Of a DNA stretch of 64,000 bases, positions 1,371 to 55,519 are shown in pieces. Below the pieces are notes generated by a model that was not told the DNA's origin, did no database searches, and saw only the letters and a program-made list of their open reading frames with translations. Origin of the DNA: Acidimicrobiales bacterium. Its GTDB lineage: Bacteria > Actinomycetota > Acidimicrobiia > Acidimicrobiales > CADCTF01. A program made the position numbers and the translations under genes. The DNA is taken from the NCBI GenBank assembly GCA_035540495.1, contig DATLGL010000004.1, positions 568 to 64,567 on the forward strand, given 5' to 3'. The stretch's first letter is position 1; each line of letters begins with the position of its first letter.

Positions 1371-1389
1371 GTCCCATGGTGGTCCCAAA
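1371..1389 (+). repeat. Putative integrase arm-type site pair, left arm
   Basis: GTCCCA at 1371 and 1382 (11-bp period); TGGTCCCAAA 1380-1389 also occurs at 54894-54903. Confidence 0.65.
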
Positions 1390-5947: not shown

Positions 5948-6009
5948 CGGCAGCCGACCCGAACGACGGCTACGCGCTGTCCGAAGTCGCGACAGATTGC
6001 TCCTGTCGG

Positions 6010-9798: not shown

Positions 9799-9886
9799 AG
9801 CGACTCCCCGCCGCTCGCGCGGTTCTCCGAGTGGGCGTACGGAACGACGGTTCCCGTCCGCACGGCGGTACACCAGAATCGCGGGT

Positions 9887-51617: not shown

Positions 51618-52931
51618 ATGGCTACAACTCACCCCGGAGGAGTGATCCCGCCGCCGCCTTTCGGGCCGGCGCGACCGCCGCGCGAGCCGTCGCTCACCCC
51701 GGCCCTAGTGGTCGTGGATTCCCGGAACATCTACCACCAGACCGAGACGGCGACGGGCTTCCGGCAACTCCCATGCGTAGACGGAGTGGTCGATGCGCTG
51801 AGGGACTTCGGGTACGACGCCCTTGAGGTTCACGTGGGCCTGGCCCTCCCCAGGAACACCGACGCAAAGCGTCTAGCCGCAGCAGGAACCGCGAACCGCG
51901 CCTTCAAGAAGCAGATCGAGAGCCACATGAGAGGGCGCGTGCTCCTCGGCGAACTGCACGCAAAGCCGCGTGACGGCGGTCGTTACGTAGGCGAAGAAAA
52001 GCAGGTAGATGTCGCATGCGCCGTGGATATCTGTCGGCACGCCACGCTCATCGCGCGTCACGAGAGCCCCTTCAAAGCGATAGTCGTGCTCTCGCAGGAC
52101 ACCGATCTGACGCCAGCTCTGCGGTACGCGGAGGAAGTCCACGTACCGGCGGTTGTCGCCGCTCATGAGCGCGTTGAGTGGCGGGGCTTTCCATACTTCC
52201 TGCTGACCGAACGATCGTTCCGCAAGATCGCCCGCGTGCACGCGCCACTCGTCGGTCACGCGTTGCGATCAGCAGTTGCAGTGGCTGCTTCCGGCCCCGA
52301 GATGTGGTGTGACTGGGAAGTCCTCGGGTGGGATCCGACGCGCGAGCGCATCCTCCTCGTCAACGGCGATGGACTTCGCGGAGTCATCAAGAGGAACCTG
52401 CTTGATGACATCGGCATGGCCAAGCCAGGCGCGATCGTGAGGCTACGTGTCACCGGCATCAACTACGGGCCGAGACGCAACAACTTCCCGCTCGTCGCAT
52501 GCACGACCAAGGGTGTCCACCCAAGCCATGACCATCGGAAGGACCTTGAGATCCGAAGGGTCGTCGCGCGCCGTACGGTCGGCGAGATCGAGGTCGATGC
52601 ACCGGTGTACTCGAAGACACGGTTGGCGTATCCGTTAGGCGGGGCAACACCAGGTGTCGAGGTCGTGATCGACTGCTCGGAGCCGAATCGCCCGATAGTG
52701 GTCGGACCCACCTCGTTGCCGACCAACCGTGATGTGGTGCAAGCCGCTCCGGTGCTCGTAGACACGATCACACGCGCCTCACCGACAACGACGGCCGCGT
52801 CGTGTCCCGAGGGCCGCTTGGTTCTGGCTCACAGCGCCGCCGAGGCTCCCGCCCTCGGCCGGCGCTATGCTGCGGTGATCGTCGACGACCGGTCGCGCGT
52901 CGGAAAAGTGATTTCTGGACCTATCTCTTAG
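51618..52931 (+). CDS. NYN (PIN-like) ribonuclease-domain protein with long C-terminal extension
   Basis: VVDSRNIY, EEKQVDV, LSQDTDLTP conserved acidic residues. Confidence 0.8.
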   Translation: MATTHPGGVIPPPPFGPARPPREPSLTPALVVVDSRNIYHQTETATGFRQLPCVDGVVDALRDFGYDALEVHVGLALPRNTDAKRLAAAGTANRAFKKQIESHMRGRVLLGELHAKPRDGGRYVGEEKQVDVACAVDICRHATLIARHESPFKAIVVLSQDTDLTPALRYAEEVHVPAVVAAHERVEWRGFPYFLLTERSFRKIARVHAPLVGHALRSAVAVAASGPEMWCDWEVLGWDPTRERILLVNGDGLRGVIKRNLLDDIGMAKPGAIVRLRVTGINYGPRRNNFPLVACTTKGVHPSHDHRKDLEIRRVVARRTVGEIEVDAPVYSKTRLAYPLGGATPGVEVVIDCSEPNRPIVVGPTSLPTNRDVVQAAPVLVDTITRASPTTTAASCPEGRLVLAHSAAEAPALGRRYAAVIVDDRSRVGKVISGPIS

Positions 52932-53163
52932 GTCGCGCCTATGTTGCGCCGAAGAGGTCACTGGCTATAATGTCAAGTACATCGCACTGCGGGACGTACG
53001 GGCCCGCTCTTCCAGGAGGCGGCCTTCGGGCCGCCTTCTGCGCGTCGAGCAACTCCCGTCGGAGCGTGGATCTGGTGCCCGAAATAGCCGGCAGCTCCTT
53101 CTGTGGTGACGCATCGGGCACACTCCCACGCTCCACTCGGCACCACTGCCCGCAAACTGGGAC

Positions 53164-53421
53164 TCAACCCACGTCGTCGGAGTAGTCGCCGCCCTTTGGG
53201 TCCGGGTACAGGTGCCTCAGCTCACCGGGCTGAACTCGCGTCGACTCGAGGAACGCTTCGAGATCGTCCGCCTTCAGGCGTATGACGCGGCCGAGTTTGT
53301 AGGCGGGGATGCTGCCCTCGTCGATGAGTCGGTAGAGGGTGCGGGGGACGACGCCGAGAAGTTCCGCAGCTTCGGTTGTGCCAACCCAGTGTTCGGCGCG
53401 CTTGTCCCGCTTCTGAGCCAC
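53164..53421 (-). CDS. Excisionase-like HTH protein (HTH_17)
   Basis: TTEAAELLGVVPRTLYRLIDEGSIPAYKLGRVIR; GTG start from promoter geometry. Confidence 0.88.
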   Translation of the reverse strand: MAQKRDKRAEHWVGTTEAAELLGVVPRTLYRLIDEGSIPAYKLGRVIRLKADDLEAFLESTRVQPGELRHLYPDPKGGDYSDDVG

Positions 53422-53428
53422 GCCCGGC

Positions 53429-53458
53429 AGTGTACGGGATGACATGAAAGTCTGTCTA
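53429..53458 (-). promoter_or_regulatory. Sigma-A-type promoter for a leaderless xis-like mRNA
   Basis: TAGACA(53458-53453)-N18-TACACT(53434-53429), then 7 nt to GTG 53421. Confidence 0.7.
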
Positions 53459-53467
53459 GCGACCACA

Positions 53468-53481
53468 CGAACATGTGTTCG
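53468..53481. promoter_or_regulatory. LexA (SOS) box
   Basis: CGAAC-ATGT-GTTCG matches the actinobacterial/Gram-positive GAAC-N4-GTTC operator; adjacent -10 TACGAT at 53483-53488. Confidence 0.8.
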
Positions 53482-53495
53482 ATACGATGACTTCC

Positions 53496-53684
53496 GTGGA
53501 CCGGCGACACGAGCTGGAGAATCTTCGACGGTCGGTGGCGATGCTCAACCAGTCCTCGCACGGGCTCAGCGCCGACGAGGCCTACCGGCTCATCGTCGAG
53601 CTCCAAGACGTGCGCGAGCGGCTCGACCGGCTCCGTCGCGGGCTGCAGGCGCTCCTCGACGACATCGCACGAGACAGCGGGTGA
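53496..53684 (+). CDS. Small coiled-coil protein, probably leaderless (alternative start ATG 53487)
   Basis: GTG 7 nt after TACGAT; helical heptad-like sequence. Confidence 0.6.
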   Translation: MDRRHELENLRRSVAMLNQSSHGLSADEAYRLIVELQDVRERLDRLRRGLQALLDDIARDSG

Positions 53685-53697
53685 TTGGTCATCGACG

Positions 53698-54363
53698 ATG
53701 CCGTCGCAGTTGGTCGAGCAGCGATGGCAACATCGATCCGTGGTATTGCCTCGCTTCCGCCCGATGCTTGCGTCATCTGGAGCGATTCCGGGCGACGCCG
53801 ACGACTACGCCTTCGAGCCCAAGCTCGACGGGTGGCGGAGCTTGGTGTACGTCGAGCCTGATCGTCTGACTGTGCGGACGCGTACGGGTCGCGATGTCAC
53901 CGACGCTCTCGTCGGGCTGGACGGTCTTCGTGGCGCATGCGGTGGCTCCCGCGTGATTCTCGATGGCGAGCTGGTCGCACACCGAGGGACGCCGGACTCC
54001 TTCTATCGGCTCGGTGCGCGCATGGCGGCAAGGTCGCCGCTGGCGAAGGCGGCCCGCGTGCCGGTGACCTTTGTCGCGTTCGACGTGCTGTTCCGCGACG
54101 GCGAGCTCATTCGCTCGTCCTACGTTGAGCGCCGTCACGTCTTGGAGTCGCTACACCTTCAGGGGCCCGCGTGGTGCACCGCCCCGTCGTTTCGCGGGCT
54201 CGGCGCGGAGCTGTTCGCCGCATGCGTCGAGTTGGGGCTCGAGGGTCTCATGGCGAAGCGCCTTGATGGTCGCTATCGACCAGGCGAGCGGTCGAGTACC
54301 TGGATCAAGGCGAAGACGGTCGAGTGGAAGACGCGGCACCTGCCGTACCGCGGCGATCGGTAG
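53698..54363 (+). CDS. ATP-dependent DNA ligase, adenylation domain only
   Basis: EPKLDGWR (motif I), LDGELV, FDVL, EGLMAK, WIKAK; ends without an OB domain. Confidence 0.85.
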   Translation: MPSQLVEQRWQHRSVVLPRFRPMLASSGAIPGDADDYAFEPKLDGWRSLVYVEPDRLTVRTRTGRDVTDALVGLDGLRGACGGSRVILDGELVAHRGTPDSFYRLGARMAARSPLAKAARVPVTFVAFDVLFRDGELIRSSYVERRHVLESLHLQGPAWCTAPSFRGLGAELFAACVELGLEGLMAKRLDGRYRPGERSSTWIKAKTVEWKTRHLPYRGDR

Positions 54364-54387
54364 CCGACGCCCGCGACGCACGTCGTT

Positions 54388-54409
54388 GGTACTAGTTCGG
54401 TACTAGTTC
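54388..54409 (+). repeat. Tandem 11-bp direct repeat
   Basis: GGTACTAGTTC x2, intergenic between ligase and xis-like gene. Confidence 0.6.
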
Positions 54410-54633
54410 TGGCCGGACGACCGCGGATTCGCCAGCACGACGTGCGACAAACGTGCTGGTCAACGCATCACGCGGACGAGATGGACAAGGTCTGGAGACC
54501 ATGGACATCTCTGCGCTTCGGCAACGGGTGGCCTCACGACCGCGTTCACGTGCTGCCGCGGGCGCTCACGGTTCCCATACCGAGCCAGCAGAAAGGCCGC
54601 GGACATGTCGCGTCGTCGCGGCCTTTGCATGGC

Positions 54634-54849
54634 ATGAACCGAACCATCACCACCCGAGCCGCTCTCGTCGACATTGCTGCCGTCGCCGACCGTCTCGGCG
54701 TCTCCGTCCGCCACGTGCGGCGACTCGTCGCTGAGCGGCGCATCCCCTTCATCAAGTGGGGGCATCTACTTCGCTTCGACATGGACGACGTCGAGCGCTG
54801 GATCGAGGATGCCCGCGTGACGTCGTTCGTCGACGGGCACGGCCGATGA
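54634..54849 (+). CDS. Excisionase-like HTH protein
   Basis: DIAAVADRLGVSVRHVRRLVAERRIPFIKWGHLLRFD; close to att. Confidence 0.9.
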   Translation: MNRTITTRAALVDIAAVADRLGVSVRHVRRLVAERRIPFIKWGHLLRFDMDDVERWIEDARVTSFVDGHGR

Positions 54850-54883
54850 GAGCGGCCGCAAGGTCGCCGCGGCTTCCCTTTCC

Positions 54884-54903
54884 GGTCCCAACGTGGTCCC
54901 AAA
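54884..54903 (+). repeat. Putative integrase arm-type site pair, right arm
   Basis: GGTCCCAA-CG-TGGTCCCAAA; same motif and 11-bp period as 1371-1389. Confidence 0.65.
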
Positions 54904-55000
54904 GAGGGCGGTAAATCGCGTGCTCGGAGGGTTCATTGCGGCTAGCGCCACCACTGCACGAGGCAGCAAGAACGCCTTGTTTTTCCGACGTCCTTAGTTG

Positions 55001-55072
55001 CGCCCTCGGAAGGATTCGAACCTTCGCACCCGGCTCCGGAGGCCGGTGCTCTATCCCCTGAGCTACGAGGGC
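55001..55072 (-). tRNA. tRNA-Arg(CCG), CCA not encoded
   Basis: Full cloverleaf: GCCCTCG/CGAGGGC acceptor, GCTC/GAGC D-stem, CCGGC-CTCCGGA-GCCGG anticodon arm, GAAGG-TTCGAAT-CCTTC T-arm. Confidence 0.97.
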
Positions 55073-55135
55073 GGGAACAGGGCGATCATCGTAGTCCCTC
55101 CGCCCTAGGGCTCTCGCCGCCTACCATCTCTCCCC

Positions 55136-55519
55136 GTGCCCGACGCCAAGGTGCTGCTGGTCGACGACGACCCGGTGATCCTCAAGCTCCTCCAGGTCAA
55201 CTTCGAGATGGAGGGCTACACCGTCATGACTGCGAGCGACGGGGTCGAGGGCCTCGAGAAGGCTCGTGCCGAGCGTCCCGACATCGTGCTGCTCGACATC
55301 ATGATGCCGAGGATGGACGGCCTCCAGGTGACCAAGGAGCTCAGGGGCTCCGACGACACGAAGGAGATCCCGATCATCCTCCTGTCGGCCAAGGCACAGG
55401 CGTCCGACATCCAGACCGGACGTGAGGTCGGGGCCGACGACTACCTGACCAAGCCCTTCGATCCGCTCGAGCTCCTCGAGCGCGTCGGCGACCTCCTCGG
55501 CACCGGCGACATCCACTAG
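55136..55519 (+). CDS. Single-domain response regulator (receiver only)
   Basis: LLVDDD, LLDIMMP, LSAK, YLTKPF. Confidence 0.93.
   Translation: MPDAKVLLVDDDPVILKLLQVNFEMEGYTVMTASDGVEGLEKARAERPDIVLLDIMMPRMDGLQVTKELRGSDDTKEIPIILLSAKAQASDIQTGREVGADDYLTKPFDPLELLERVGDLLGTGDIH

Follow-up and report, generated by a model that had tools for sequence, protein, structure and literature searches.

Direct control of mobile-element genes by LexA is already known and occurs, for instance, at tum of phage 186 and rstA of CTXphi. It was likewise described for the integron integrase gene intI (PMC3108266). In all three cases the box acts directly on a gene for recombination, antirepression or replication. 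In integrative and conjugative elements (ICEs) such as SXT/R391 (SetR) and ICEBs1 (ImmR/ImmA), where DNA damage triggers excision, the SOS signal is sensed through RecA-stimulated loss of the element's own CI-like repressor. Expression of an integrase gene (int) coupled to excision is also known, from ICEclc of Pseudomonas, where the outward promoter Pcirc becomes fused upstream of the weak Pint upon excision (PMC5812530); the ICEclc outward promoter is constitutive, lies near the end of the element and was experimentally demonstrated. The locus described here is a divergent region with a LexA-type box, located at the tRNA-proximal end of an ICE in a 64,000-nucleotide stretch (hereafter the window) of contig DATLGL010000004.1 from an Acidimicrobiales bacterium (genome of 4.07 Mb, 69.5% G+C).

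This locus shares features with each of these systems and differs from all of them. As for SXT/R391 and ICEBs1, DNA damage is the proposed trigger of excision, but here a host LexA operator would do the sensing, and no CI-like repressor was identified in this ICE. As with Pcirc and Pint, outward transcription at the end opposite int would join int only after circularisation, and a weak int-proximal promoter would serve in the integrated state. Unlike in ICEclc, the nearest recognisable promoter lies approximately 1.5 kb from the attachment (att) core, would be LexA-controlled, is separated from that core by a structured spacer and an excisionase-like gene (xis2), and is predicted from sequence. 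In contrast to intI, tum and rstA, the box stands directly on a ligase operon, and a recombination directionality factor (RDF) would be reachable only by read-through. The LexA (Cheo-box) promoters of Mycobacterium and Corynebacterium likewise have CGAAC-N4-GTTCG overlapping the promoter, and the leaderless layout is shared with the SOS genes of this host. Yet, in contrast to chromosomal Cheo-box repair genes, the operator resides on a mobile cassette and serves a small helical protein and a ligase devoid of OB domain. What appears to be new, and is well supported by the comparisons below, is thus a leaderless, portable ligase cassette, predicted to be operated by host LexA, on an actinobacterial ICE.

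The interpretation that we favour, with a probability of about 0.6, is that a 1.34-kb SOS cassette (53172-54510) was captured near the attR end of the 53.7-kb ICE. Host LexA bound to CGAACATGTGTTCG would repress a two-gene operon (a 62-residue helical-hairpin protein and the OB-less ligase), and DNA damage would derepress it just as it does the leaderless SOS genes of the host. For xis1, on the other strand, a separate leaderless promoter would serve, which a conserved paralogue on the chromosome had passed on to it. Some transcription from the LexA promoter would, in attenuated form, reach xis2, the putative RDF, providing at most a weak and secondary SOS input to excision. The integrase gene would be governed by a degenerate leaderless -10 hexamer (TAAGCC) and by arm-type sites repeated in tandem across its start codon, and, after excision, the transcript leaving xis2 would cross attP (260 nt) and add to int expression in a Pcirc-like manner. 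LexA binding, induction and read-through, into xis2 and further into int, are predicted steps of this scheme; the link of the box to excision and integrase is a possible geometry, evolutionarily recent, rather than a supported mechanism. The principal features are as follows (window coordinates).

53164-53421, minus strand: xis1, 85-residue HTH_17/excisionase-family protein (Pfam HTH_17 2.8e-16; TIGR01764)
53429-53458, minus strand: leftward promoter, -35 TAGACA, N18, -10 TACACT, 7 nt from the GTG at 53421
53468-53481, no strand assigned: very probable LexA (Cheo-type) operator CGAACATGTGTTCG, 26.6 bits, eighth genome-wide on the host SOS matrix
53483-53488, plus strand: rightward -10 TACGAT, 1 nt past the box and 7 nt before the GTG at 53496
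53496-53684, plus strand: 62-residue helical-hairpin protein, starting at GTG 53496 (AlphaFold pLDDT 87)
53698-54363, plus strand: minimal ATP-dependent DNA ligase, 221 residues (Pfam DNA_ligase_A_M 3.7e-27), no OB domain
54388-54409, plus strand: 11-bp tandem direct repeat, GGTACTAGTTC twice, inside the conserved module and unique in the window
54634-54849, plus strand: xis2, 71-residue HTH_17 protein (Pfam HTH_17 3.2e-11), reading outward towards attR

The box aCGAAC-ATGT-GTTCGAt was found at 53468-53481, where an earlier, sequence-only reading of this DNA had placed it, and its designation as a LexA-type operator was upheld by comparison with the SOS regulon of the host. A single lexA gene was identified there (C39:24787-24978). 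Strict CGAAC-N4-GTTCG occurred 27 times genome-wide against approximately four expected from base composition, and was present upstream of recA, lexA, dnaE2, imuA-like, dinB-like (Y-family polymerase) and ruvC genes, as well as genes for a UvrD-like helicase, an exonuclease/GIY protein, a radical-SAM protein and an HNH protein (identities assigned by eye from translations). The looser GAAC-N4-GTTC was counted five times in the window against 1.1 expected, and the exact 14-mer CGAACATGTGTTCG was also encountered at three chromosomal sites. On a weight matrix built from ten chromosomal SOS sites, with the ICE site left out, the ICE box (26.6 bits) outscored those of recA (23.8) and lexA (19.7); within the ICE, the same scan gave no second strong site of this type, and the runner-up reached 13.3 bits. 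The operator is palindromic, and the host, which encodes LexA, carries the same motif at its canonical SOS genes. CGAACATGTGTTCG is very probably a real LexA operator.

The layout of the rightward promoter points in the same direction. Leaderless SOS promoters of the host consist of the box, 1 nt, TANNNT, 5-8 nt and the start codon (7 nt in the ICE), an arrangement displayed by 6 of the 19 top matrix sites but by only 20 of 20,000 random positions (0.1%). It recurs at host dnaE2, dinB-like and exonuclease/GIY genes and at two other SOS genes. The box occupies the spacer/-35 region of the rightward promoter and is centred near -21, a standard repressing position. A separate copy of the region (L079, 87% nucleotide identity) retained both half-sites, both -10 hexamers (the leftward one reading TACAGT) and the leftward -35, while the 4-nt spacer of the box and the bases between box and -35 had changed. 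Half-sites were invariant and the spacer variable in both L079 and another copy, L080; conserved half-sites and -10 hexamers around a variable spacer form the pattern expected of functional elements. Three other high-scoring boxes of the host (C60:45570, C64:37577 and C65:17819) precede uncharacterised genes, coding for one 216-residue HTH protein and two Cys-rich proteins of 184 and 204 residues. By eye, the latter two have a C-x2-C...C-x2-C pattern in common with a 126-residue open reading frame (ORF) upstream of a distant ligase homologue (L054).

The sequence-only reading had also proposed two apparently leaderless promoters, and both sequences were recovered: TACGAT precedes the GTG of the small ORF and TACACT that of xis1, each by 7 nt and so within the 5-9 nt usual for a leaderless TANNNT, and both are kept in L079. 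The rightward order on the plus strand (small ORF, ligase, second HTH_17 gene) was confirmed as well. The 62-residue protein was modelled as helix-loop-long helix (helices 3-19 and 26-61, pLDDT 87) and had no match in Pfam, NCBIfam or PHROG; its homologues, found on four other contigs, all metagenomic (L079-L082), always lie inside the same module. The ligase is composed of the adenylation domain only and belongs to a large family of homologues of roughly 200-250 residues, the nearest of which come from metagenome-assembled genomes of Acidimicrobiia. In a set of 38 loci with distant ligase homologues, five of the seven matrix matches of at least 14 bits sit 290-805 nt upstream of the ligase, and one homologue (L054) displays box-g-TACGGT-8 nt-GTG, again an ICE-like layout. 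Given these recurrent boxes, the operator would primarily serve the small ORF-ligase operon. As a separate observation, a ligase homologue in the metagenome contig L052 (4001-8648) occurs in a mobile-element context (ArdC, resolvase), a few kb from the conserved chromosomal HTH_17/SAF/HIT locus, a proximity that may reflect coincidence or an insertion hotspot.

Anatomy, operator quality, conservation and mosaic boundaries of this unit are shown by the sequence. The shared block, which has sharp boundaries, corresponds to window positions 53172-54510 and runs from xis1 through the control region and the small ORF to a point some 150 nt past the ligase, with 98% identity to L080-L082 (one and the same sequence) and 87% to L079. 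Its left flanks represent three contexts (window, L080 group and L079), all different from the xis1 stop codon onward. To the right, L079 and L080 continue with the last 30 or so codons of an acyl-CoA dehydrogenase gene, then a methyltransferase gene, and not with xis2. The window has about 40 nt of this remnant, which matches C29:103496-103588, followed from 54510/54511 by unrelated sequence up to xis2. Because the dehydrogenase remnant is shorter here than in the other copies, the 54510 junction is secondary and reflects a later rearrangement. Judged by these boundaries, the LexA unit is a portable cassette without xis2, to which it was joined secondarily by recombination. When the whole 1.8-kb region was searched in 400 genomes of the order, no full-length module appeared, and only the two HTH_17 genes matched, separately. 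The tandem repeat GGTACTAGTTC is conserved in L079-L081 with varying neighbouring bases, and an HTH_17 protein may bind there.

Such a history also raises the possibility that the unit is pure cargo, an SOS-inducible repair module without any role in excision or integration, in which case xis2 and int would be controlled independently and the position of the module would be accidental. The occurrence of the block elsewhere with neither xis2 nor att beside it, the boxes upstream of distant ligase homologues, the secondary nature of the 54510 junction with its shortened remnant and the stable hairpins between ligase and xis2 (see below) all agree with this view. It meets a difficulty at xis2 itself: no recognisable promoter was detected in 54511-54633 and a hairpin ends 6 nt before the ATG, so some xis2 transcription must come from upstream, where the nearest promoter is the LexA one. 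We regard pure cargo as rather unlikely.

On the leftward side the evidence is different. TAGACA-N18-TACACT, which the sequence-only reading had put ahead of an excisionase-like gene, was the sole sigma-70-like match in a scan of 52700-55200, and it does precede GTG 53421 of xis1 with its HTH_17 domain. That reading went further and proposed that LexA represses both promoters, that damage yields xis1 together with a long small ORF-ligase-xis2 transcript, and that int is expressed in the circle only, across attP. In its favour, the operator is real by its sequence, and no other strong site of LexA type was found in the ICE. Derepression of the rightward operon would follow from that operator, but its extension to xis1 does not: the leftward -35 is separated from the box by 9 nt, and the box, centred near -53 and thus upstream of that -35, does not overlap the leftward core promoter. 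LexA repression of xis1 is not implied by this anatomy and would be at most weak. A PafBC-type (RecA-independent) promoter motif was also considered at xis1 and rejected, no match to its consensus being seen by eye.

The relatives of xis1 further set it apart. It is paralogous to a housekeeping gene of the host (C60:67180-67368, 84% identity over 63 residues), whose product is an uncharacterised conserved HTH_17 protein. Orthologues of this paralogue in other genera of the order are 60-83% identical to xis1 and occupy a conserved housekeeping neighbourhood (PhoH, HIT, SAF/RcpC and ParA/ssd-like genes, assigned by eye; Pfam confirms HIT and SAF/RcpC in L052). The promoter of the C60 paralogue, TAGTCT-gccggc-GTG, is leaderless like that of xis1 and lacks a LexA box. 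Likewise, no LexA box was found upstream of xis1 homologues elsewhere, which turned out to be housekeeping genes. All xis1 relatives were either chromosomal housekeeping genes or travellers of the ligase cassette, and none was linked to an integrase. As in RdfS of ICEMlSymR7A (8DGL) and Xis Gp37 of mycobacteriophage Pukovnik (4J2N), an excisionase-type winged helix is present in both xis1 and xis2; among solved structures xis1 comes closest to RdfS (E = 1.4e-3), and it may bind DNA much as an RDF does. With respect to the RDF family, however, xis1 is a housekeeping paralogue and only xis2 is syntenic with integrases. Owing to its 84% identity with the conserved chromosomal HTH_17 gene, xis1 is probably a DNA-binding regulator, not an excisionase.

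A regulator divergent from a small LexA-controlled ORF recalls the antirepressor switches of coliphage 186 (Tum) and the Gifsy phages. By that analogy xis1 would repress the ICE or the module, the 62-residue protein would be its antirepressor, and SOS would act indirectly. The small ORF does always travel with xis1, and the modelled helical hairpin would suit protein-protein contacts. Yet, the protein has no homology to known antirepressors in Pfam, NCBIfam or PHROG, no xis1 operator was identified at the conjugation genes, and xis1 is of excisionase/RdfS type, unlike CI-type repressors. An antirepressor switch is highly improbable.

The second HTH_17 gene has another affiliation. TIGR01764 matches both xis1 and xis2, but in L039, L045, L047 and L048 a homologue of xis2 (62-75% identity across these homologues) immediately precedes a tyrosine integrase gene. 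A tRNA gene adjoins the integrase in L039; one is also present in L046, which has an integrase remnant. Four loci with an integrase of this ICE's family (L062, L064, L065 and L066) have an xis2-like gene just 3' of int. Because its homologues are syntenic with integrases, xis2 is a likely RDF. Its placement is another matter: xis2 stands across attP from int here and adjacent to int in the relatives, the circular order being attP-int-xis in the latter and xis2-attP-int in this element. No xis-like gene was found at the tRNA-proximal end of the three relatives examined (L070, L071 and L078). Given the other order in relatives and the lack of an xis gene at their tRNA end, the outward-facing xis2 is, as far as these loci indicate, a peculiarity of this ICE. 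Separately, an xis2-like gene in L076 (G368:C191) was located beyond the 8.7-kb island, past its attL-type tRNA fragment, as though several islands, in tandem or decayed, had occupied this tRNA-Arg site.

Expression of xis2 would depend on what lies between it and the ligase. An extended xis2 ORF of 135 residues from GTG 54442 was rejected on account of the weak coding signal of the extension (G+C of 0.73 at third and 0.55 at second codon positions), its odd translation and the start of the homologues near the ATG. No promoter for xis2 was found by scanning 54364-54633, nor any TANNNT by eye, and the gene has no recognisable Shine-Dalgarno sequence. The hairpins of the region are listed here.

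53013-53040, no strand assigned: strong hairpin, GGAGGCGGCC-UUCG-GGCCGCCUUC, between the convergent NYN-like gene and xis1
54472-54516, plus strand: hairpin in the acyl-CoA dehydrogenase 3' remnant (-23.8 kcal/mol, z = -4.6); cassette homology stops at 54510
54592-54628, plus strand: GC-rich hairpin AAAGGCCGCG...CGCGGCCUUU (-20.1 kcal/mol, z = -1.64), followed by UUUGCAU

The first of these (-25.2 kcal/mol, z = -4.36 on the plus strand; -21 kcal/mol, z = -3.0 on the minus strand) is probably a bidirectional terminator. The hairpin at 54592-54628 resembles it, ends 6 nt before the ATG of xis2 and is a candidate attenuator or terminator. Since there is no room for a promoter between this hairpin and the ATG, xis2 must be transcribed through it. 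It probably receives attenuated read-through, with the LexA promoter as the nearest one upstream. The inclusion of xis2 in the LexA unit, another element of the sequence-only reading, thus stands as far as orientation goes (the four genes to the right are all co-oriented, and xis2 has neither promoter nor Shine-Dalgarno sequence of its own), but xis2 lies outside the conserved block, past a recombination junction and a structured spacer, with a hairpin and UUUG just before it.

Several points weigh against the interpretation that we favour. The 270-nt spacer between ligase and xis2 is more structured than shuffled controls (z = -2.84), and with two stable hairpins in it read-through into xis2 may be negligible. 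Conversely, the hairpin at 54472-54516 lies in a coding remnant and may be fortuitous, which would allow efficient read-through. The other contexts of the cassette are contigs of at most 5 kb, beyond which att or int may lie. Two divergent promoters are sometimes governed by a single LexA box, for example at uvrA/ssb of E. coli, and by this analogy xis1 may respond to LexA after all.

The integrase and att features are given next.

1266-1310, no strand assigned: attL core, 45-nt copy of the tRNA-Arg(CCG) 3' end, a perfect repeat of 55000-55044
1371-1388, plus strand: probable P' arm-type tandem repeat, GTCCCA-N5-GGTCCCAA, with an 11-bp period and overlapping the int start codon
1376-2740, plus strand: tyrosine integrase (Pfam Phage_integrase E = 6e-17), reading inward from attL
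54884-54902, plus strand: probable P arm-type tandem repeat, GGTCCCAA twice (copies at 54884 and 54895), with an 11-bp period
55000-55072, minus strand: tRNA-Arg(CCG), whose 3' 45 nt (55000-55044) are the attR core

The ATG of int (1376) is located 65 nt inside the repeat, whose core ends at 1310, and the gene reads away from attP, immediately downstream of it. Homologues of the integrase (52-66% identity, 11 loci) display the same geometry wherever a tRNA-Arg fragment or gene is present. The sequence-only reading had put int about 250 bp downstream of xis2 in the circle, and the computed distance from xis2 stop to int ATG is close to it (150 + 45 + 65 = 260 nt). It had also held that a terminator between 54364 and attP would block read-through. 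No canonical hairpin-plus-U-tract terminator was found in a scan of 52700-55200, although the two stable spacer hairpins count on the other side, and the joined form holds no strong terminator from xis2 stop to int ATG. Apart from the tRNA arms in antisense, that stretch has only a weak hairpin with U5 at 54966-54984 (-3.6 to -5.8 kcal/mol, z = 0.3). The geometry would permit read-through from xis2 into int after excision. With regard to a Pcirc-type arrangement, the outward gene is present (xis2), but the sole recognisable promoter lies 1.5 kb upstream with hairpins between. Exact-word scans of metagenome contigs for the core/P' and P/core junctions found nothing.

Control of int itself appears to involve the tandem repeats. 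Three of the four window copies of GGTCCCAA flank the att core, and the 1371/1381 pair straddles the int ATG. In the 11 loci with int homologues (L058-L068), a tandem YCCCA pair of the same period was read close to the start of the gene, most clearly in about nine; its sequence differs from element to element, and in about five loci one copy lies on each side of the start codon, so that the protein begins with x-[VLA]-[LV]-P. Most simply, these repeats are probably arm-type sites of the integrase (Int) and, less likely, RDF sites; their position over the start would imply int autoregulation. In two relatives (L058 and L061) int is preceded by a clear leaderless promoter, TAGTCT-N6-ATG, compared with the weaker TAAGCC-N7-ATG of this ICE.

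The coupling of int to the excised state is therefore supported as regards geometry and not as regards expression solely after excision: Int is required for excision, so int must already be made in the integrated state. The coupling of xis2 to int is, by these comparisons, neither conserved nor a trait of the integrase family, the HTH_17 gene of relatives being found just 3' of int and none facing outward at the tRNA end. The degenerate -10 of int and the 260-nt stretch without strong terminator do fit the full model of the sequence-only reading. Taken with the distance of the box from the xis1 -35, the housekeeping relationship of xis1 and the position of xis2 beyond the junction and the spacer, however, that model is quite improbable. 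A related proposal, in which host LexA itself gates ICE excision by attenuated read-through into xis2 and the attP-crossing transcript then runs past the arm sites over the int start codon and boosts int for reintegration, seems unlikely; if true, the Pcirc principle of ICEclc would exist here in a feed-forward form driven by LexA, without an element-encoded CI-like repressor.

The nature of the element follows from its content. A perfect 45-nt direct repeat (1266-1310 and 55000-55044), identical to the 3' part of tRNA-Arg(CCG), was found in two copies and no others by whole-genome search. Between the copies lie the tyrosine integrase, a TrwC relaxase, a type IV secretion system (T4SS) coupling protein (T4CP) and a VirB4-like ATPase, the set expected of a T4SS-type ICE between tRNA direct repeats, together with a Prim-Pol, a type III restriction-modification pair, two insertion sequence transposases and cargo genes. 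By this gene content the element is a 53.7-kb T4SS-type ICE, with the divergent LexA-boxed region at its tRNA-proximal end. An Rfam search of 52900-55150 returned the tRNA as the sole known RNA family. The host response-regulator gene starts at 55136, beyond attR, and the tRNA/regulator synteny is repeated in L071. In the integrated state, transcription past xis2 (54850-55519) would cross tRNA-Arg(CCG) in antisense and then enter this regulator gene in sense. The motif CGACCCGAACGACGGTTCGTG is repeated through the cargo region (9842 and 22962, with related copies at 5950, 6917, 26607 and 29555). GAAC-GACG-GTTC at 9842 and 22962 was considered as LexA sites and rejected, being part of this different repeat; copies of CGACCCGAACGACGGTTCGTG contain GAAC-N4-GTTC, yet none was among the LexA-matrix matches above 13 bits.

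The conserved tandem arm-type repeats at the int start codon provide a marker of predicted autoregulation in this integrase family. Excision coupling, if true, would extend the Pcirc principle to a damage-inducible promoter, but is here secondary and uncertain. The cassette itself defines a small, shuffled SOS unit made of an HTH_17 paralogue, a helical protein and an OB-less ligase. If LexA operates its promoter, a mobile element would be using the host SOS repressor directly instead of a cleavable one of its own, and this in a poorly studied group of Actinomycetota.

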